A stretch of DNA of 21,928 nt from a virus (taxonomy: Duplodnaviria; Heunggongvirae; Uroviricota; Caudoviricetes), in the IMG/VR virus record IMGVR_UViG_2651869749_000015. One strand, given 5' to 3'. Below, piece after piece: positions 1 to 13,315 of this stretch (the first letter of the stretch is position 1; every line of letters starts with the position of its first letter). The notes beneath the pieces are model-generated. The model was not told where the DNA came from. It saw only the letters and a list, made by a program, of their open reading frames with translations, and made no database searches. A program made the position numbers and the translations under genes.

Positions 1-90
1 TTGCCTCCCCCCCGTTGATGGGTAAAATAGCCGCAATTTTTCGTTTTCAACAAGCGCGGCGCGATGCCGCTTACTCAAGAAGAAAGAATT

Positions 91-165
91 ATGACGTTGT
101 CTCCTTATTTGCAAGAGGTGGCGAAGCGCCGCACTTTTGCCATTATTTCTCACCCCAATAATTAA
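91..165 (+). pseudogene. prfC: 5' fragment of peptide chain release factor 3 gene, truncated after codon 22 at the prophage junction
   Basis: ATG at 91 translates [22 protein letters not shown], which matches my recollection of the E. coli PrfC N-terminus (normally continuing DAGKTT into the GTPase P-loop). Here the frame reads NN-stop (TAA 163-165) and integrase-associated sequence follows. Confidence 0.55.
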
Positions 166-319
166 GCCCAATTTAAAGCTCTTTTATTCTTTCAAAGTCC
201 TTTCAGTTAATTGAGATTGAGTCATATAACTCATTTAAATACATTTGGTTATGTGGCTTCTTTAATTGAAAATTCTTTCATGTAGCTTTAAATCGATCAG
301 GTTGCTTTCATCAAAAATC

Positions 320-376
320 TGTACATATGCTTGTACATAATGTACAAAGCAGCAGAGGTGTTTTGCGATTTGTACA
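320..376 (+). promoter_or_regulatory. Cluster of four TGTACA hexamers immediately upstream of the integrase start; candidate recombinase/excisionase binding sites overlapping the int promoter
   Basis: TGTACA occurs at 320-325, 332-337, 341-346 and 371-376, each in a TTGTACA(A/T)-like context, within 66 bp of the int ATG (386). Confidence 0.4.
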
Positions 377-385
377 AGGTGAGTA

Positions 386-1609
386 ATGGCGCTGTCTGAT
401 GCGTGGTTGCGTTCAGTTGTTGGAAAGGAACGTGATAAGGTTTTGGTTAAATCCGATCGTGATGGTCTGTCTGTCAGAGTATCACCGAAAGGTCGCGTAG
501 TGTTCCAATATCGTTATCAATGGGCAGGGAAAGGTGAGCGTCTTGATATCGGAACTTACCCGGCAACTGGATTAAAAGAGGCCAGAGAAGAAGTTATCCG
601 TCTCCGTGGTGAACTCGAGTCAAACCGCAATCCACGATTGGTCAAGCAGGCAGAAAAACGCAAAGCTACTGAAGCCATGACTGTAGAGTCTGTGATCCGT
701 GCTTGGTATGAAGCATATTGTGTAAAAAATAAAAAAGGTGCTGAGCAGATACTCCGCTCATTTGAACTGCACCTGTTCTCTAAAATCGGGAGTATCCCTC
801 ACGATGCAGCTACATTGCATGATTGGTTAGAGGTCTTGGAGCCTCTTAGCACTAAGACTCCAGCAATAGCTGACCGATTGCTAATTAACGCAAAGCAGGC
901 CCATGTCTGGGCGTATAAGAGAAAGCTCATTGAAACTCGCCCGCTGTCGGATATCACAGGTAAAGATATGGATATCCGTAAAGGTCAGAAGAAACGGTTT
1001 CTGACACATGATGAAATTAAAATCCTTTATGCTGCGATCGATGGTTCTCGAATGGTTCCTAAATACCGGGCCTTCATTAAACTATTGTTGCATTTTGGCT
1101 GCCGTAGTTCAGAGCTAATTACCGCTAGGGTGGACGATTTTGATTTCATTAATAAGGTATGGACTGTACCGCCAGAACGACATAAGACAGGGGAGATAAC
1201 AGGCGAACCACTAAAGCGGCCCATTATTGGGCCGGTTGAAGAGCTTATAAAATACGTTATCTCTATGAACAACGGTTCCGATATGCTTTTTACTAAGGAA
1301 GGAAGCAGGGAGCCAGTTGGTCGGACATCATTGCAGTCGCTGCCTTACAATTTAATGCAGTTCGCATGGCGACGTTTGGGGTATCAATTCCCTCATTGGT
1401 CTCTTCATGATTTGAGGCGAACAGCACGAACAAACTTTTCTGATCTTACTGCGCCTCATATTGCAGAAATTATGCTTGGTCATAAGTTGCCAGGGGTATG
1501 GCAGGTTTATGACAAGAGCGATTATCTAGAAGAACAGCGTAAAGCCTACCAGGTATGGTGGGAGAGGGTTGAATTGATAGTTGCTTGTATTAGCTCAGAC
1601 CCCAACTGA
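386..1609 (+). CDS. int: Tyrosine site-specific integrase (P4-like family with N-terminal arm-binding domain)
   Basis: 407 aa ORF. Catalytic signature residues are visible: R in FGCRSSEL, H-x-x-R in HDLRRTART, H in LGHKLPG and Y in VYDKSDY. It sits directly beside the prfC junction. SD-like AGGTGA lies 3 nt upstream of the ATG. Confidence 0.92.
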   Translation: MALSDAWLRSVVGKERDKVLVKSDRDGLSVRVSPKGRVVFQYRYQWAGKGERLDIGTYPATGLKEAREEVIRLRGELESNRNPRLVKQAEKRKATEAMTVESVIRAWYEAYCVKNKKGAEQILRSFELHLFSKIGSIPHDAATLHDWLEVLEPLSTKTPAIADRLLINAKQAHVWAYKRKLIETRPLSDITGKDMDIRKGQKKRFLTHDEIKILYAAIDGSRMVPKYRAFIKLLLHFGCRSSELITARVDDFDFINKVWTVPPERHKTGEITGEPLKRPIIGPVEELIKYVISMNNGSDMLFTKEGSREPVGRTSLQSLPYNLMQFAWRRLGYQFPHWSLHDLRRTARTNFSDLTAPHIAEIMLGHKLPGVWQVYDKSDYLEEQRKAYQVWWERVELIVACISSDPN

Positions 1610-1880
1610 CCGTTTGCATAGCTAGAACGAAATAAAATCTGACTGTCCGTTTTGAGCGACAACTAGACCTCAAAATATCTGTTGGATAATGGGGGTAAAA
1701 TACACTTTAAAAAAATATGCTTAATAAGTAACTTATTTTGTTTAAATTTATGAAACACTCTCTAAATTATCTCTTATAATTTAACATTCTTTCTTGATTA
1801 TATGTGTAAAAATATAGTTAAAAATGTTAACTGAGATGCGTGTGTTATTAATGTGTTGATTTCTAATGTTGTTTTTGTTT

Positions 1881-1908
1881 GCGCCTTGAATGCAAGGCGC
1901 TATTTATC
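1881..1908. terminator. GC-rich hairpin between the convergent 3' ends of int and the cargo operon (possible terminator)
   Basis: GCGCCTT-gaatgc-AAGGCGC (7 bp stem, 6 nt loop) at 1881-1900, followed by TATTTAT on the + strand. The T-run is weak on the minus strand, so strand assignment is uncertain. Confidence 0.3.
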
Positions 1909-2401
1909 AAGATAGTCTATTCAGATCAGTATTAGGTGTGCTTCTTTTTGATGCAAAGATGGATTTGAATCTTTTTGAGTAACTATCAAAAAACCATTTT
2001 GTATAATTACCTTCAATTTCCTCTAATATTGAATACTTCATCTCATGAAGTTCATTTTTATAATCACACTTTTTGCTTAACAAGTCTAAAGGTGTTGATC
2101 TGATAGATGACAACTGTTCATCACATAATAATTTCTTACCAATCCTTTGTGATAAATGAGACAGCTGCATTTCAATTAATGAGACACTGGAGGCTAAAAA
2201 ATTATCCAGCTCTAATTCTTTAGTATCTCTAGAAGAGAGCTTATCTAAAACATTATCAAAAAGAGATTCTATTTGCTGACAGATTTTATCCTTTTGCCTT
2301 GAAATATCATTTCGCTTGAATGCTCTATTATTGAAATAAGACGCAACAAGCCAACCAATTATAGCAATCACAATACTTGTATAATTAACCTCTTCCTGCA
2401 T
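1907..2401 (-). CDS. Small single-pass membrane protein of unknown function (third gene of the cargo operon; candidate effector)
   Basis: ORF with ATG at 2401 (GTG at 2404 one codon upstream). Hydrophobic helix YTSIVIAIIGWLVASYF near the N-terminus, followed by a polar, charged region. Its start overlaps the stop of the upstream gene by 17 nt. Low GC. Confidence 0.6.
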   Translation of the reverse strand: MQEEVNYTSIVIAIIGWLVASYFNNRAFKRNDISRQKDKICQQIESLFDNVLDKLSSRDTKELELDNFLASSVSLIEMQLSHLSQRIGKKLLCDEQLSSIRSTPLDLLSKKCDYKNELHEMKYSILEEIEGNYTKWFFDSYSKRFKSIFASKRSTPNTDLNRLS

Positions 2402-2717
2402 CACTCTCTGCCTTATTCAATCGTTCATCAATCAAGGTCTCAATACTCTTAATATCTTTATGAGTATAAGTTAGTTTTTTCTTAAGTTCGCTTAATGTGT
2501 AGCCTTCTACTCGGATCAAGCCACCAAACGCTTCATCAATAAATGAACGCCCATAACGGTTATATCCAGTCAACTCAACATGAACTAAATCATACTCTTT
2601 GAGAAAGCCTGCCAGATATTTGCGAAAGTTTTCCCCACAGCCTGCCCCATCGTCTGGATAGCGCCCGTAAGGCTTACTGTTGAAGTCTTTGATAACATTG
2701 ATGTTTTTAGTCTTCAT
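2385..2717 (-). CDS. Small STAS-like protein (DUF4325-type, anti-sigma-antagonist-like fold) - putative partner of the adjacent kinase
   Basis: 110 aa. The segment DLVHVELTGYNRYGRSFIDEAFGGLIRVEG matches the pattern I recall for DUF4325/STAS-like proteins (V-x-L-D/E-F/L-x-G-V, then SF-x-DE-x-F-G-x-L). Its ATG overlaps the stop of the upstream ATPase gene (2707-2717). Assignment is from memory, not an HMM hit. Confidence 0.6.
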   Translation of the reverse strand: MKTKNINVIKDFNSKPYGRYPDDGAGCGENFRKYLAGFLKEYDLVHVELTGYNRYGRSFIDEAFGGLIRVEGYTLSELKKKLTYTHKDIKSIETLIDERLNKAESDAGRG

Positions 2718-3816
2718 AGCTGACCTTGATGTTCCACTGAATTAAAGTACCTGGTACTTTATGAGTTAACTCATTAATTTTATCACCTTTCTTATTAGAA
2801 AGCTTGAACATACCTAAATTACTGTAAATCCAAAGGTTTCCATGTTCATTATTTAGTACTAGAGCTTTAATACTCTTACTTCCTTGACCATGTTTATCAT
2901 TGGCTGTACCGGTTACGTCTCCAATCATAGAAATTGCTATTTTTACTGCATCAGAAACAATACCAACTTTTACTTTAGAGCGCTCTTTATAACCTAAACC
3001 TATTCTCTCAAGTTCTTCGTTAACCGCAACCTTTAGATCTGGATATTTTGATTTGAGCGTACTCATAAACCATGTCTTTTGCATTACAGTTTCAGGTATA
3101 CCAACACCTTCATCATATATAGCAAGATACAGCTGGTCATGAATTACGTGACATGCAAGCCACCATCGTTTCTCATCATTATTTTTATGCGGATAGGCGT
3201 GTAAACCAACATTATTTATTGCTTCCTGAACAGCATCTGCATATGTATGTTCTGTTTCAGGTTTCATCTTGTTTTTATAAATTTCTTTCTGGATGAAATC
3301 TATAATCTCATCTCTATATTCTCCTCCTACCCCGCTAATAATGGGCAAGTTTTCAACGTTTTCGAAGACAGGTTTTAATTTTTCGCCCCGACATAAGGCG
3401 ACAAGCCCCGAGTCTCTTAAAAGCTGATTGACTTTAAAATCTGTTGAAAATAATAATCTGTACGATAAACCTTTACGAATTGAAGTTTCAACACTGGCAT
3501 AAAGTATTACTAATGCTGCCATTTTTATTGTTTTTGTATTTGTAAAATCTAAATATAATCTCTCATCAGGATTGTATTTTTTATTCCTGACGTGATTTAT
3601 CGAGTGTAGAGAGTGCGCAAAAAAATTAGGCTTATCTGGTGAATATATTGAAAACTCAGATGGAAACCGAATAAAGTTATTATCTTTTTTCTTTTGAGAT
3701 TTTTTTTGTTGACGAAACTGCGAATACTCTTTCCCTTGACGGGAAACACTTCGCTGCCATCTTTTAAAAGCCAGCCTAATTCTTACACTTTTTTCCTTAT
3801 TGGTCTTGTTTTCCAT
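2707..3816 (-). CDS. GHKL-superfamily ATPase / RsbW-SpoIIAB-like serine kinase domain protein with a basic N-terminal tail
   Basis: 369 aa. Bergerat-fold motifs in the C-terminal half: N-box QEAINNVGLHAY (residues ~197-208), G1 box IYDEGVGIP (D235-G239; confirmed as gatgaaggtgttggt on the minus strand at 3100-3114), G2-like RIGLGY, and C-terminal GTLIQWNIKV. Start ATG at 3816 is preceded by SD AGGAGA. First ~45 residues are very K/R/Q-rich. Confidence 0.75.
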   Translation of the reverse strand: MENKTNKEKSVRIRLAFKRWQRSVSRQGKEYSQFRQQKKSQKKKDNNFIRFPSEFSIYSPDKPNFFAHSLHSINHVRNKKYNPDERLYLDFTNTKTIKMAALVILYASVETSIRKGLSYRLLFSTDFKVNQLLRDSGLVALCRGEKLKPVFENVENLPIISGVGGEYRDEIIDFIQKEIYKNKMKPETEHTYADAVQEAINNVGLHAYPHKNNDEKRWWLACHVIHDQLYLAIYDEGVGIPETVMQKTWFMSTLKSKYPDLKVAVNEELERIGLGYKERSKVKVGIVSDAVKIAISMIGDVTGTANDKHGQGSKSIKALVLNNEHGNLWIYSNLGMFKLSNKKGDKINELTHKVPGTLIQWNIKVSYED

Positions 3817-4563: not shown

Positions 4564-4758
4564 CTACTCAATAATTCCAGCAAATCTGTATATCTTGTGT
4601 GATGCCCATTTATTTGGGCAGGATTTAATATCCGGATCTGGAAACTCAGGCCTGTATTTCTGGCCAGTTCTCCTGTTTACGCTGTTCCAGCGAAGAACGG
4701 TCGATACTGAAACGCCACAGAAGTCGGCGACTTGTTTAGTTGTCATTAAGTTGTTCAT
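4564..4758 (-). CDS. Excisionase-like / AlpA-family small HTH DNA-binding protein
   Basis: 64 aa, MNNLMTTKQVADFCGVSVSTVLRWNSVNRRTGQ... with a helix-turn-helix. It is the last gene of the leftward operon, on the integrase side of the prophage. Confidence 0.55.
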   Translation of the reverse strand: MNNLMTTKQVADFCGVSVSTVLRWNSVNRRTGQKYRPEFPDPDIKSCPNKWASHKIYRFAGIIE

Positions 4759-9527: not shown

Positions 9528-10220
9528 TTAATTGTGTCGCTTAAGGGTTTGTGACTGACTGATTAAGACCTTTCCAAAGACCATAAACCGATGTTCGTTT
9601 TCGCTGGTAATTCCCCATTCGCGGTAAATCTGATTATCAGAAATTACCAGCAGTTTATCAGGTATCATTTGCAGTCGTTTGACGTAAATTTTATCATCAA
9701 AACCAAATACATATATACCATCCCCATCAAACTGATTGATACTGATATCAACGAAGATGAGATCTCCTGGCTCAATGGTTGGACACATACTGTCCCCACG
9801 AACGTTGATAACTTTAATGTGATTTGCTGGTCGTCCACCAAACATCGATACAGCATTATCAGTTCTGTATTCAATGGCATGAATCACATCAATGACATCA
9901 CCGCCCTGGATAAGGCCATTTCCCGCACTGGCACTGACATCCAGCATTTCAATACGGAATACATCCTTCACCTGCGCAACATCCTCACTAATACTGTTTT
10001 TACATACAGTATTACTTTTGAGGTCTGAGGTAAAGAGATCAGCAATATCAACACCTAAGCTCCTGGCAATATTACTCAGGGCTTGTTCAGTGAATTGTTT
10101 CTGCTTACCTGTTTCGAGGCGCGAGATATTCGCCGCATCCACTCCTATTGCTTCAGCGAGATCGGCGATTTTCATGTTCTTCGCCTGGCGAAGTTGTCTG
10201 ACTCGATTTCCTATGTTCAT
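9528..10220 (-). CDS. cI: CI-type prophage repressor, LexA-like autocleavable (N-terminal HTH plus C-terminal S24 peptidase domain)
   Basis: 230 aa. HTH in MKIADLAEAIGVDAANISRLETGK; A-G cleavage-site-like SASAGNG; Ser nucleophile in VRGDSMCPT and Lys in IYVKRLQ. Divergent to cro. Confidence 0.9.
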   Translation of the reverse strand: MNIGNRVRQLRQAKNMKIADLAEAIGVDAANISRLETGKQKQFTEQALSNIARSLGVDIADLFTSDLKSNTVCKNSISEDVAQVKDVFRIEMLDVSASAGNGLIQGGDVIDVIHAIEYRTDNAVSMFGGRPANHIKVINVRGDSMCPTIEPGDLIFVDISINQFDGDGIYVFGFDDKIYVKRLQMIPDKLLVISDNQIYREWGITSENEHRFMVFGKVLISQSQTLKRHN

Positions 10221-10317
10221 GCGTTTATTACATTTCTTTATTGCGCGTTAAGCAAATCAACTTGCGCAAAATATTTGCGTGAAATAATATGCTCATCACG
10301 CAATATGTGGAGGTTAT
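10221..10317. promoter_or_regulatory. Immunity-region divergent promoter/operator (oR with pR and pRM-like elements)
   Basis: Operator-like TTGCGCGTTAAGCAA at 10241-10255 and near-palindrome CGCAAAATATTTGCG at 10265-10279. Candidate pR: TTGCGC (10262-10267), 17 nt, TAATAT (10285-10290), then SD GGAGG and the cro start. On the minus strand a TTGCTT-17 nt-TGTAAT arrangement ends 6 nt before the cI ATG, which would give a near-leaderless cI transcript. Confidence 0.45.
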
Positions 10318-10578
10318 ATGCAATCACCATTACGGAATGTGCGTAAGGCGCACGGATTTACTTTGCAGCATGTTGCTGCGGGCGTTCAGGTCAATCCAGC
10401 GACGCTGAGTCGTATTGAAAGACTGGAACAAATTCCATCTATCGAGCTTGCAGAACGTCTGGCCAATTTTTTTAAGGGAGAAATCAGCGAAATGCAGATT
10501 CTCTATCCTGCACGCTTTCAATCTAGTCAAAACCGGAATGAGTTAAAACCACAGGAACAGGAGGTAAGCCGTGGGTAA
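10318..10578 (+). CDS. cro: Cro-like HTH transcriptional regulator
   Basis: 86 aa, XRE-type HTH (FTLQHVAAGVQVNPATLSRIERLEQ). GGAGG SD. Divergent from cI across the operator region. Confidence 0.8.
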   Translation: MQSPLRNVRKAHGFTLQHVAAGVQVNPATLSRIERLEQIPSIELAERLANFFKGEISEMQILYPARFQSSQNRNELKPQEQEVSRG

Positions 10579-11122
10579 GCATCACTGGAAAGTGGAAAAA
10601 CAGCCTGAGTGGTACGTGAAAGCTGTCAGAAAAACTATCGCGGTGTTGCCGGGGGGTTACGCTGAAGCTGCTGAGTGGCTGGATGTAACAGAGAACGCTT
10701 TATTCAACCGCCTTCGTGCCGATGGCGATCAGTTTTTTCCGTTGGGATGGGCAATGGTTTTACAGCGTGCGGCTGGTACTCACCACATTGCGGATGCTGT
10801 CGCACAGTCTGCTGGTGGGGTGTTTGTATCACTTCCAGAAATTGAGGAAGTAGAGAACGCCGATATAAACCAGCGCCTGCTGGAAGTCATCGAACAGATC
10901 GGGAGTTACTCAAAGCAGATTCGTTCGGCAATCGAAGATGGGGTAGTGGAGCCACACGAGCAGACAGCAATTAATGATGAGTTGTATCTGTCAATTTCGA
11001 AGCTCCAGGAGCATGCAGCACTGGTCTACAAAATCTTCTGCGCTCCAGAAAAGAGTAACGCCCGCGAGTGTGCAGCTCCGGGCGTCGTGGCGTTTTGTGT
11101 CTGTGGAGAAACTAACGCATGA
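10571..11122 (+). CDS. CII-like regulatory protein (phage 186 CII / CP76-like family)
   Basis: 183 aa. GTG start with AGGAGG upstream, overlapping the cro stop. The pattern ...ALFNRLRADGDQFFPLGWAMVLQRAAG... resembles the 186-CII/CP76-type regulators as I recall them. Confidence 0.5.
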   Translation: MGKHHWKVEKQPEWYVKAVRKTIAVLPGGYAEAAEWLDVTENALFNRLRADGDQFFPLGWAMVLQRAAGTHHIADAVAQSAGGVFVSLPEIEEVENADINQRLLEVIEQIGSYSKQIRSAIEDGVVEPHEQTAINDELYLSISKLQEHAALVYKIFCAPEKSNARECAAPGVVAFCVCGETNA

Positions 11123-12279
11123 ACAGTTTAACGGCAAATAACCGTTTGTCGCAACAGCTGGTGGTCAGTGTCGCTGCACACCTGTTGTTACGGCATGAAT
11201 GCAGATTACCAAATCACCTGGCTGTAAGTAACCACAGAGAACTTTACCTGACTGTGGGGGGCGAGTTGTGCAGGAACTTAACCGCTGGTTTCGTGACGGA
11301 AGAGGACTTTATGTTCATGTTATTCGTTGGGAGCCAGAAACACAGCGCGTTATCTATCTTCGCAAAGACTACCCGCATGAGTGCTTTAGTCCTTTGTGGA
11401 AATTCAGGCGTGATTTTGTTGAGTGTGAAGGACCACCAGCATATTGATTCTGCAATTCCGGGACGTTACACTGTTCAGGCACCTTATAAAGCGGGTGCCG
11501 GGATTGGCGTCCTGAAATTGTCAACGGCGATGTATGACGCGCCAGCGTCTTTTTTATCGTCCGCATTTGCTCACATCCAGATTATGGTGGGCTGGGCGGG
11601 GGCACCGAAAGGTGCGCCGGTCTCCGTTGACGCCGGTTACGCCAACCCCGTCCAGTTCACCACCAGTGAAATTGGCGTTTCCGGTGGTGGAAGTTTTTCA
11701 CTGTCAACGGAGGCTGCCATCATGGCTACGATCCAAGCCCTCACTCAACCTGAAATCACCATTGACAACGGCCAGGCCGTTACCACTTCTTTGGCTGTTG
11801 CCAACTTCTTCTCCAAGCGTCACGACGATGTGCTGAAAAAGATCCGCACTCTGGATTGTTCCCCTGAGTTTTGTGCCCGCAATTTTGCGGAGACATCGAT
11901 TTCGGTAAATCAACCGAACGGTGGTACACGCAAGCTCCCTTGCTATCAAATCACACGAGACGGTTTTGCGTTTCTTGCTATGGGTTTCACGGGTAAACGT
12001 GCTGCCCGATTCAAAGAGGCATACATCAATGCCTTTAACCAGATGGAAAAACTGCTTTCAAAGCCATCCACGCTGAGCGATGCCGCAGATAACGCCAGCG
12101 TGCTTTACTCCCACCTGTCGGTAATCCACAAGGTCTGGCTGCAGCAGCTTTATCCTATGTTGGCAAAAGCTGAATCTCCGCTGGCTGTTAGCTTATATGA
12201 TTATATTAATGATGCTTCGGCGCTGGCCTGCCTCATAAATTTGTCGCTGAACCCTTCAGAGGTAAGGGGGCGCAAATGA
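11119..12279 (+). CDS. Rha-family phage regulatory protein (Rha domain in the C-terminal half; N-terminal ~200 codons of the long ORF are doubtful)
   Basis: The pRha signature ITIDNGQAVTTSLAVANFFSKRHDDVLKKIRTL...YQITRDGFAFLAMGFTGKRAARFKEAYINAFNQMEKLL starts at an internal ATG at 11722 with GGAGG 9 nt upstream. The upstream part of the 386-codon ORF has an off-frame-like composition (see findings). Confidence 0.6.
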   Translation: MNSLTANNRLSQQLVVSVAAHLLLRHECRLPNHLAVSNHRELYLTVGGELCRNLTAGFVTEEDFMFMLFVGSQKHSALSIFAKTTRMSALVLCGNSGVILLSVKDHQHIDSAIPGRYTVQAPYKAGAGIGVLKLSTAMYDAPASFLSSAFAHIQIMVGWAGAPKGAPVSVDAGYANPVQFTTSEIGVSGGGSFSLSTEAAIMATIQALTQPEITIDNGQAVTTSLAVANFFSKRHDDVLKKIRTLDCSPEFCARNFAETSISVNQPNGGTRKLPCYQITRDGFAFLAMGFTGKRAARFKEAYINAFNQMEKLLSKPSTLSDAADNASVLYSHLSVIHKVWLQQLYPMLAKAESPLAVSLYDYINDASALACLINLSLNPSEVRGRK

Positions 12280-12500
12280 TCCGGAATATTTTCAAACGGT
12301 TTACCAATCAGACTTTCCGTTGTCCTCGTCCGGGTCAGTGGTACACCACACCTGCAGGGCATGTTCTACGTGTTAGCCTGGTTGACCGTGAATGTCAGAA
12401 GGTGATTTGTGAACCGCTGGGCCGTAATTACCGCGTCAGTATGCCGCTTATAGCCTTTCGCTCCGGAAAAAACATGAAGCATCTCGGAGGTGCTGCATGA
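12276..12500 (+). CDS. Hypothetical small phage protein
   Basis: 74 aa ORF, translationally coupled on both sides (ATGA overlaps with the Rha stop and with the next gene's start). Confidence 0.5.
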   Translation: MIRNIFKRFTNQTFRCPRPGQWYTTPAGHVLRVSLVDRECQKVICEPLGRNYRVSMPLIAFRSGKNMKHLGGAA

Positions 12501-13315
12501 GTATGGAGCTGATGGTTAAAGCGATGAAAATTCGAGTGGGTAATCCATTGCGAAAACTGGTTCTGATCAAGCTGGCTGATAATGCCAGCGATCAGGGGGA
12601 GTGCTGGCCCAGCTACCAGCATATTGCTGACCAGTGCGAGATTAGCAAACGTTCTGTGATGAATCATATTGCGGCCCTTTGTGAGTCCGGGCTGGTAAAA
12701 AAAGTCACCCGGAAAGGTGAAAAAGGTAACTCAAGTAATATCTATCTCCTTCATCTGGATGGTGCAGGAGATTCACTAGGGGGTAGTGCAAATAATTCAC
12801 TATCTGGCGCAGCAAATTCACCAGGTAGTGCAGGAGTTGCACCAGGGGGTAGTGCAGGAGATTCACCCAGAACCAGTCACTCTTTTGAACCAGTCAAAGA
12901 ACCAGTCAATGAACCAATAGCTGTTGGTGCATCAGTTGATGAGTCTGTGCGAGTTCGTTCAAACCGACCGGAATACTCTCCGGAGTTTGAGCAGGCATGG
13001 CTGGCATATCCCAAACGTGCTGGTGGCAATTCAAAATCTGCAGCCTTCAAAGCCTGGAAAGCCCGTTTGAATGAGGGGGTAAACCCCGAAACCATGCTGG
13101 AAGGTGTGAAACGCTACGCGGGCTGGGTATCTGCGATGGGTAACAGCGGCACACAATTTGTGAAACAGGCTGTCACGTTCTTTGGTCCGGATCGTCATTT
13201 CGAAGAATCCTGGGAAGTTCCTGCGGTATCTGCAGCCAGACGTGAGGACCCGTACTTCAAAGCCAGTTACGACAACGTGGACTACAGCCAGATCCCGGCA
13301 GGATTCAGGGGGTGA
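12497..13315 (+). CDS. Replication initiation protein (O-like: N-terminal winged-helix domain, Gly/Ser/Ala linker encoded by iterons, C-terminal domain)
   Basis: 272 aa. N-terminal wHTH-like LVLIKLADNASDQGECWPSYQHIADQCEISKRSVMNHIAALCESGLVKK. An internal tandem DNA repeat array encodes a G/S/A-rich linker, as in lambda O. GGAGG SD. Confidence 0.6.
   Translation: MSMELMVKAMKIRVGNPLRKLVLIKLADNASDQGECWPSYQHIADQCEISKRSVMNHIAALCESGLVKKVTRKGEKGNSSNIYLLHLDGAGDSLGGSANNSLSGAANSPGSAGVAPGGSAGDSPRTSHSFEPVKEPVNEPIAVGASVDESVRVRSNRPEYSPEFEQAWLAYPKRAGGNSKSAAFKAWKARLNEGVNPETMLEGVKRYAGWVSAMGNSGTQFVKQAVTFFGPDRHFEESWEVPAVSAARREDPYFKASYDNVDYSQIPAGFRG
12760..12866. repeat. Iteron-like direct repeats inside the replication initiator gene (putative origin of replication)
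   Basis: Five copies of a ~17 bp unit T(A/G)GTGCAGGAGATTCAC and variants, ending at 12776, 12800, 12821, 12842 and 12866 (period 21-24 bp), followed by three GAACCAGTCA repeats at 12869-12910. Confidence 0.5.

Follow-up and report, generated by a model that had tools for sequence, protein, structure and literature searches.

TGTACA repeats ahead of the integrase gene of a prfC-inserted lambdoid prophage as predicted arm-type integrase sites

The short interval in front of an integrase gene (int) in a phage-derived DNA contains the hexamer TGTACA four times, which raises the question of which protein reads these repeats and whether they serve recombination, control of int, or both. The DNA analysed here is a stretch of 21,928 nucleotides, referred to as the window. 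A preliminary description of it had reported four copies in the 66 bp before the int ATG, with no similar cluster noticed elsewhere, and had suggested that they could be arm-type binding sites of the integrase or the excisionase. A hexamer search of the 21.9-kb window places the four copies at 320, 332, 341 and 371 on the plus strand, that is, at -66, -54, -45 and -15 relative to the A of the int ATG (386), and the three remaining copies (8990, 20866 and 21721) are each isolated, so both observations hold. The total of seven copies compares with 4.75 expected from shuffled sequences; the hexamer is therefore not enriched window-wide, and the clustering is the outlier. None of 2000 dinucleotide-preserving shuffles reached at least three TGTACA inside 57 bp, and none of 300 shuffles gave any hexamer four times inside 57 bp (0/2000 and 0/300), which rules out chance or base composition as the source of the cluster. 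The overall count that had been proposed as a check thus speaks against general enrichment and in favour of local clustering.

The location of the cluster is defined by the host gene that the element has entered. Positions 1-155 comprise the promoter region and the first 22 codons of Escherichia coli prfC, and they match prfC in 5425 of 5426 complete E. coli genomes. When window positions 1-1700 were compared, 699 of the 5,426 genomes were found to run from prfC into the integrase as the window does. Identity between prfC and the phage attP stops within 142-155, the 14-bp core ATTATTTCTCACCC. The annotation of the Stx2c phage LC727889 gives these 14 bp as its insertion duplication, and they recur at the attR of E. 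coli NZ_CP180604, a 99%-identical lysogen. Past the core follow int, three cargo open reading frames (ORFs) on the minus strand, the excisionase gene xis and the early-left operon; cI, cro, a CII-like gene and an O-like replication gene are also present in the window. The window thus represents the attL side of a lambdoid prophage that has entered prfC near its 5' end; relatives of this prophage include phage cdtI, Ayreon, 2H10 and many Stx1a and Stx2c phages. As int reads away from the core, the TGTACA cluster falls in the int-proximal (P') arm of attL, and the 230 nt between the core and the int ATG are this P' arm. The main features of the context are as follows:

91..165, plus strand: start of the host prfC, cut by the insertion (24 codons in translation, the stop being supplied by phage DNA)
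142..155, plus strand: att core ATTATTTCTCACCC, 14 bp, crossover region of attL, from the end of prfC/attP identity and its recurrence at attR
386..1609, plus strand: int, tyrosine integrase of the IntSXT subgroup (SXT/cdtI cluster), from Pfam domains and 95-97% identity to relatives
4564..4758, minus strand: xis, recombination directionality factor (PHROG 1553 excisionase, E = 4e-35; weak HTH_17 signal)

The integrase (Int) is of the P4/SXT type and is 95-97% identical to the integrases of cdtI, Ayreon and Stx phages. Pfam searches identified PF13356 Arm-DNA-bind_3 (DUF4102; E = 2e-16), PF22022 Phage_int_M and PF00589 Phage_integrase; Int has, in other words, an N-terminal arm-binding domain besides its core-binding and catalytic domains. 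Because Int bears Arm-DNA-bind_3, arm sites have to exist somewhere. The cdtI integrase has been classed with that of SXT in one cluster of the IntSXT subgroup, all of whose members insert at prfC (PMC8138268).

The sequences flanking the hexamers reveal that the sites are oriented. Those at 320 and 332 are direct copies (TGTACATA), and those at 341 and 371 are inverted. When the region is aligned with relatives, the conserved architecture takes in only three of the four sites, namely 320, 332 (with a TAA flank) and 371. These hexamers, with the TAA, are the invariant columns among Enterobacterales relatives, and in close relatives they form invariant islands amid diverged spacers. Site 341 is confined to the E. 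coli/Trabulsiella lineage. The sites and the adjoining ribosome-binding site are listed here:

320..325, plus strand: predicted arm-type site P'-1, TGTACA, direct, in the extended form tcTGTACAtat; hexamer invariant in relatives
332..337, plus strand: predicted arm-type site P'-2, TGTACA with TAA flank, direct, exactly 12 bp past site 1
341..346, minus strand: extra lineage-specific site, an inverted copy of site 2 (TTGTACAT / ATGTACAA)
371..376, minus strand: predicted arm-type site P'-3, inverted (CTTGTACA / TGTACAAG), 39 bp past site 2 and abutting the int Shine-Dalgarno sequence
376..383, plus strand: int ribosome-binding site AAGGTGAG, from the sequence; kept as AGGTG in relatives

Whether this arrangement is a general property of the integrase family was examined in phages, in 80 bacterial genomes with integrases 43-97% identical, and in one SXT/R391 element that was considered separately. 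Across the 80 loci, the 250 nt preceding int contain 8.06 TGTACA per kb, versus 0.143 per kb in the remaining 440 kb. The exact pair TGTACA-N6-TGTACA was found 46 times within 130 nt upstream of int and not once in the other 450 kb. A motif-agnostic search, which accepted any 7-mer repeated at 11-14 bp with a reverse-complement copy downstream, was run on 86 loci with integrases 39-97% identical, among them the E. coli prfC phages, Gifsy-1 and Acinetobacter phages. The 12-bp pair with a downstream inverted copy was present in 76 of the 86 loci, against 3/86 in a coding control and 3/86 in a shuffled control; by this measure the sites track integrase lineage rather than host, an association that is confounded by phylogeny. 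Although spacings of 11-14 bp were allowed, the pair spacing was 12 every time, so that the distance from site 1 to site 2 is invariant in all 76 loci having the layout. In 62 of 74 loci the third copy follows the second at 37-41 bp, and it mostly precedes the int ATG by 15-31 nt, just before the ribosome-binding site. The consensus of sites 1 and 2 is TGTGTACATA, an oriented sequence of about 10 bp; the third site corresponds to this sequence in reverse complement, TATGTACACA.

Where a lineage has a variant motif, all copies differ jointly, and the third copy changes as the reverse complement of the pair, as can be seen in the following loci:

Gifsy-1 group: direct pair GTGTCCA and GCGTCCA; inverted, two copies of TGGACAC
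Locus L047: direct pair of two GGGTACA; inverted TGTACCC
Loci L029 and L057: direct pair of two GAGTACA; inverted TGTACTC
Loci L023/L026: direct pair of two AAGTACA; inverted GTACTT
Locus L084: direct pair of two GTACCAA; inverted TTGGTAC
Locus L039: direct pair of two GGTGTAA; inverted TTACACC

From such joint changes in non-palindromic variants it follows that the site lacks symmetry and that the third copy is in inverted orientation. The Gifsy-1 group also has an extra inverted copy analogous to site 341, located 16 bp past its site 2. Elements with TGTACA and elements with TGTCCA share enterobacterial hosts, and TGTACA is kept in Acinetobacter, Moraxellaceae, Marinomonas and Burkholderiaceae. 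A motif that differs within the same hosts yet is the same across unrelated hosts points to a reader encoded by the element and not by the host.

The arm domain of Int varies along with the motif. Solved relatives of Int are isolated arm domains only (3JTZ/3RMP and 3JU0), and the AF2 model of this domain, with a mean pLDDT of 71, has a beta-sheet followed by a helix. The domain is about 53% identical across the integrase family. Residues 29, 37, 41, 52 and 54 fall in its predicted beta-strands, and to judge from strand alternation they would be on the polar face. In all or nearly all of 56 TGTACA loci these residues are S/G, K/R, Q, R and D, respectively; in the TGTCCA clade they are W, A, F, K and T, and they are altered also in several independent variant lineages. 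This correlation, which is confounded by shared ancestry, supports Int as the likely reader.

If the repeats are arm-type sites, the opposite arm of the attachment site is the place to look for their counterparts, and the comparison with the attR side that had been suggested earlier turned out positive. Four more TGTACA lie on the far side of the core in cdtI and Ayreon, whose genomes are circular, and at the attR of NZ_CP180604, and in all three this P arm contains the same TGTACATATGnTTGTACATAAT module as the P' arm. The P-arm module TGTACATATGATTGTACATAAT is the counterpart of TGTACATATGCTTGTACATAAT at 320-341 of the window. Within a 7.5-kb stretch of cdtI, TGTACA occurs solely at the eight att positions, and in 44 kb around the attR of NZ_CP180604 the only TGTACA-N6-TGTACA pair is the one at attR. 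About 68 nt separate the P-arm pair from the core that follows it, and the P' pair comes 164 nt after the core, the P' sites as a whole being 164-221 nt from the core. The same holds beyond the prfC phages: the Acinetobacter phage ABMM1 has TGTACA-N6-TGTACA on its other arm, Gifsy-1 has the variant TGTCCA-N6-TGTCCA there, and the SXT/R391 element R997 has three TTTGTACAC pairs with 12-13 bp spacing around its core. This R997 attP core, GGGTGGGAAATAAT (locus L089, 4162-4670, joined to L091), matches the reverse complement of the window core at 13 of 14 positions. In all four lineages (prfC phages, ABMM1, Gifsy-1 and R997) the pairs flanking the core are 216-246 bp apart, the distance to the core being 64-74 nt for one pair and 144-164 nt for the opposite one. 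The repeats are thus unlike the core, present on both arms of attP and outside the crossover region, as arm-type sites are. The P arm also supplies a replacement prfC start (locus L088, 19300-19389, minus strand), by which prfC is restored at attR in the way described for SXT; the ATG of this replacement sits 16 nt past the P-arm TGTACATAAT.

Judging from these sequence comparisons, we consider it highly likely that the TGTACA cluster is a set of P'-arm arm-type sites whose reader is the phage's own Int, through its N-terminal arm-binding domain. The domain architecture and the geometry of the two arms suggest that Int molecules sitting on the core, which they contact with their catalytic and core-binding domains, could at the same time reach the two arms, and that such bridging would build integrative and excisive intasomes, as lambda Int does. 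Since int starts 10 nt past site 371, its promoter and leader would sit among the sites, and occupancy by Int should also lower int expression, by analogy with KplE1 IntS and P4 Int.

The most serious competitor for the sites is the excisionase, which would bend the P' arm for excision and repress int by binding TGTACA. This assignment has some appeal: excisionases bind direct repeats in att arms, the KplE1 excisionase TorI binds attL and represses intS (PMC2951348), and a xis-like helix-turn-helix (HTH) gene travels with int in most related loci, so that it could co-vary with the motif. Owing to this companionship, co-variation alone cannot exclude the excisionase, and divergence and layout were used instead. 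The Xis of the window is 27% identical to that of Gifsy-1, and in BLASTP neither has detectable similarity to R997 Xis; the excisionases have therefore diverged far beyond the motif and the 12-bp spacing, which are nearly invariant. The Xis of Gifsy-1 is reported to bind cooperatively to three imperfect repeats in direct orientation that are spaced by one helical turn, and according to a 2008 paper these Xis sites, and not the Int arm sites, were the ones characterised in Gifsy-1 (PMC2603039). Like Gifsy-1 Xis, other characterised excisionases bind at least three head-to-tail repeats one turn apart. For TGTACA the arrangement is a direct pair at 12 bp together with inverted copies, and it is found on both arms; this departs from an array of at least three head-to-tail repeats at 10-11 bp, usually on one arm. 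Such an array fits another class of repeats (class B) that lies between the core and site 1:

189..205, plus strand: distal pair of class B repeats, candidate Xis sites, CTTTCA at 189 and 200, with 11-bp phasing
275..310, plus strand: proximal group of class B repeats, candidate Xis sites, CTTTCA at 275, CTTTAA at 286 and CTTTCA at 305

The Gifsy-1 Xis site is reportedly a 31-bp run of three repeats 10 bp apart. The CTTTCA at 305 lies 14 nt before site 1, in a position that matches a conserved 'AGtCa' element of the family consensus. At the same relative position, relatives have lineage-specific repeats with 10-11 bp phasing, such as CGGACA, AAGACA, CCGACA and TTCAA, and Gifsy-1 has second-class repeats that are CCTnCGCAAA-like; the CTTTCA class is absent from the P arm of cdtI. 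These lineage-specific repeats suit a diverged excisionase better, and by sequence the CTTTCA repeats are probably the likelier excisionase sites. Were Xis to own TGTACA, moreover, the arm-binding domain of Int would be left with no visible target. For these reasons it is unlikely that the TGTACA sites belong to Xis, and Int is much the better candidate reader. The earlier suggestion of integrase or excisionase arm sites is accordingly supported in essence and narrowed: the integrase half is favoured by the arm domain, by the presence of sites on both arms and by the co-variation, with three of the four sites being ancestral, and the excisionase half is far less probable.

Readings that place the sites outside recombination are weaker still. 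It is very unlikely that they are elements of the int promoter or leader, such as operators of a CII-like activator or of a repressor, or an RNA hairpin formed by the inverted copies. TGTACA-N6-TGTACA does bear a superficial resemblance to the TTGC-N6-TTGC of lambda CII, the third copy holds a fixed position right before the int ribosome-binding site, and inverted copies able to pair in RNA would co-vary in a seemingly compensatory way. Yet the same pair occurs on the other att arm far from int, in SXT/R391 attP with int reading toward the site, and in elements devoid of a lambdoid CII, namely ICEs and phages of Acinetobacter and Moraxella. A hairpin would leave the direct pair unexplained, and RNA structure in the int leader was rejected, as the predicted fold of 316-400 is unexceptional (-20.9 kcal/mol, z = -0.64). 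The cI/cro operator region around 10220-10318 contains zero TGTACA, so cI/Cro operators were rejected as well. A host transcription factor or another nucleoid protein is an extremely improbable reader. The closest match is the TyrR box, a two-fold symmetric sequence with the consensus TGTAAA-N6-TTTACA that is bound by a host dimer. Sites 320 and 332 match this TyrR-type box at 10 of 12 positions, with hexamers 6 bp apart and G and C at symmetrical positions. What decides against it is symmetry and host range: the non-palindromic lineages show direct repeats (GGGTACA...GGGTACA, GTGTCCA...GCGTCCA), unlike a symmetric dimer box, and the motif differs among elements of the same Enterobacteriaceae (TGTACA versus TGTCCA) while being the same in Acinetobacter, Moraxellaceae and Burkholderiaceae. 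For IHF, no exact WATCAANNNNTTR is present in 1-400. A LexA box was discarded by inspection, because CTGT-N8-ACAG does not fit 320-337; in relatives, such boxes are found only by a DinI-like gene beyond the P arm.

If the sites are arm-type sites read by Int, as we prefer, their overlap with the start of int has possible regulatory consequences. With int adjacent to att, pointing away from the core and encoded on the other strand than xis, transcription of int has either to start from a promoter in the P' arm of attL or to read across this arm. This is the layout of KplE1-type prophages, and in this respect the earlier proposal of a KplE1-like int control region in attL stands, in view of the position and orientation of int relative to the core and xis; an overlap of the sites with the int promoter is presumed, no convincing promoter having been found in 156-385. 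A scan of this interval for consensus sigma-70 promoters was empty. A relaxed scan returned only weak candidates at 7/12 that overlap sites 1-2 (TTGCTT-18-TATGCT and CAAAAA-18-CATAAT), the CATAAT at 336-341 being the best -10-like hexamer of the region. Neither the best candidate farther upstream, TTGAGT-17-TACATT (217), nor the TATGCT at 326 is conserved in cdtI. No terminator was predicted between the truncated prfC, or the host prfC promoter, and int, and read-through from host prfC into int is thus possible. With site 371 directly beside the ribosome-binding site, Int bound there would be expected to interfere with initiation or to form a roadblock. By analogy with the systems named above, autoregulation of int through Int occupancy is plausible, and we regard the matter as evenly balanced.

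It is important to note that the SXT/R391 elements carry the same sites in attP, yet their int points toward it. Promoter overlap is therefore not universal to the motif, and recombination appears to be the primary function, with regulation secondary and lineage-dependent. A bolder proposal starts from the observation that the TGTACATATGnTTGTACATAAT module stands upstream of an ATG on both arms, that of int on P' and that of the phage-supplied prfC 5' end on P. The arm sites could then double as operators through which Int occupancy would set both its own level and the expression of the rebuilt prfC (release factor 3) in lysogens. We hold this to be rather unlikely. If true, a host factor for translation termination would be tied to the recombination state of the prophage, and the fixed geometry (the 12-bp pair and the inverted copy at the ribosome-binding site) would serve as a dedicated device for regulation and not be a by-product of gene order.

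Several characterised systems help to place these sites. The classical case is lambda Int with its arm-type sites P1, P2 and P'1-P'3. It has in common with the present integrase two DNA specificities by virtue of an N-terminal arm-binding domain, short repeats unlike the core on both arms, adjacent P' copies about one turn apart, and excisionase repeats, candidate ones in the present case, between the arm sites and the core. The two differ in the arm domain, which here is Arm-DNA-bind_3/DUF4102, and in the motif, here TGTGTACATA, as well as in the fixed 12-bp spacing and the inverted third copy 38-40 bp away. In addition, int reads off the core here, which places the sites in its control region, and the attachment site is inside a protein-coding gene whose 5' end is replaced by the phage.

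A second case is KplE1 (CPS-53), in which the intS promoter is embedded in attL; PintS overlaps the arm sites of IntS as well as the TorI sites, and each of the two proteins represses this promoter (Panis et al. 2010, PMC2951348). KplE1 likewise has a P4/SXT-type integrase of the same domain family, int beside att and on the strand opposite to the excisionase gene, and an interval from core to int ATG that holds both arm-type (P') sites and excisionase sites, the sites being predicted ones in our case. However, the integrase is only about 31% identical (it is one of the argW-type integrases), the KplE1 P' sites share TAAA and not GTACA, and the target is the tRNA gene argW instead of prfC. Promoter and repression have been demonstrated in KplE1, whereas their counterparts here are presumed by analogy. 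As for the satellite phage P4, its integrase has the same arm-domain family but belongs to another integrase cluster, with other arm repeats and a tRNA target. In work attributed to Piazzolla and colleagues in 2006, P4 Int is said to exert negative autoregulation of Pint through its N-terminus, and Int and Vis reportedly both repress Pint.

Among relatives that have been studied by experiment, Gifsy-1 (Flanigan and Gardner 2007, 2008), with an Int 46% identical, stands closest. Its 14-bp core lies within the 5' portion of a host gene, and it has a convergent xis, the 12-bp pair on both arms and inverted copies before the int ATG; its motif is TGTCCA, with matching changes in the strands of the arm domain. 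The SXT/R391 integrative elements (ICEs) share the target at the 5' end of prfC, the integrase cluster (PMC8138268), the core at 13 of 14 positions and TTTGTACAC pairs of 12-13 bp, which lie about 74 and 144 nt from the core compared with 68 and 164 here. Their Int is 39% identical, and int reads toward attP with xis in between, so that the sites are outside the int control region. Furthermore, their excisionase is without detectable pairwise similarity, and they are conjugative elements, not phages.

Arm-type sites that overlap an int control region are an already known kind of arrangement, and the accepted picture of such integrases is unchanged. What is new is the detail, that is, a family-wide motif, the fixed 12-bp pair, the inverted third copy and natural specificity variants. 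In the searchable literature we found no description of arm-type sites for any member of this integrase cluster, nor of TGTACA arm sites. The module is of wider relevance, as the integrase is common at prfC in E. coli, and in the phage database it is found in Stx1a, Stx2c and cytolethal-distending-toxin phages, among others. It is a widespread integration module for toxin phages, and the cluster also holds Gifsy-1 and the SXT/R391 resistance elements. TGTGTACATA and its fixed geometry provide a means to delimit attP, attL and attR across the cluster, and the individual sites offer precise targets for mutagenesis and footprinting. The motifs TGTACA, TGTCCA, GGTACA and others, paired with residues 29, 37, 41, 52 and 54, constitute a natural specificity-swap series for arm domains of the DUF4102 type.

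Some further observations concern the surroundings. The three cargo ORFs between int and xis (1907-3816, minus strand) encode proteins of 165 aa, of 110 aa with a DUF4325/STAS-like domain, and of 369 aa belonging to PHROG 3364. A PADLOC scan of these genes gave zero hits, and a terminator-like hairpin is located at 1881-1900. In cdtI and Ayreon the same place is held by a different ORF of 2.1 kb, which indicates that the int-xis interval is a variable slot for accessory cargo. Outside the window, relatives have a DinI-like gene before the P arm together with two CTGT-N8-ACAG sequences resembling LexA boxes, a few tens of bp from the outermost TGTACA (L088, 19560-19620, minus strand; L001, about 2740-2800). 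Between the CII-like and the replication genes, the window encodes a Rha/anti-repressor-like regulator of 386 aa (PHROG 821; 11119-12279). The only other hexamer cluster of comparable density in the window consists of four GAACCA(GTCA) repeats inside 57 bp at 12868-12925, within the gene for the O-like replication initiator (12497-13315); these repeats are probably origin iterons.
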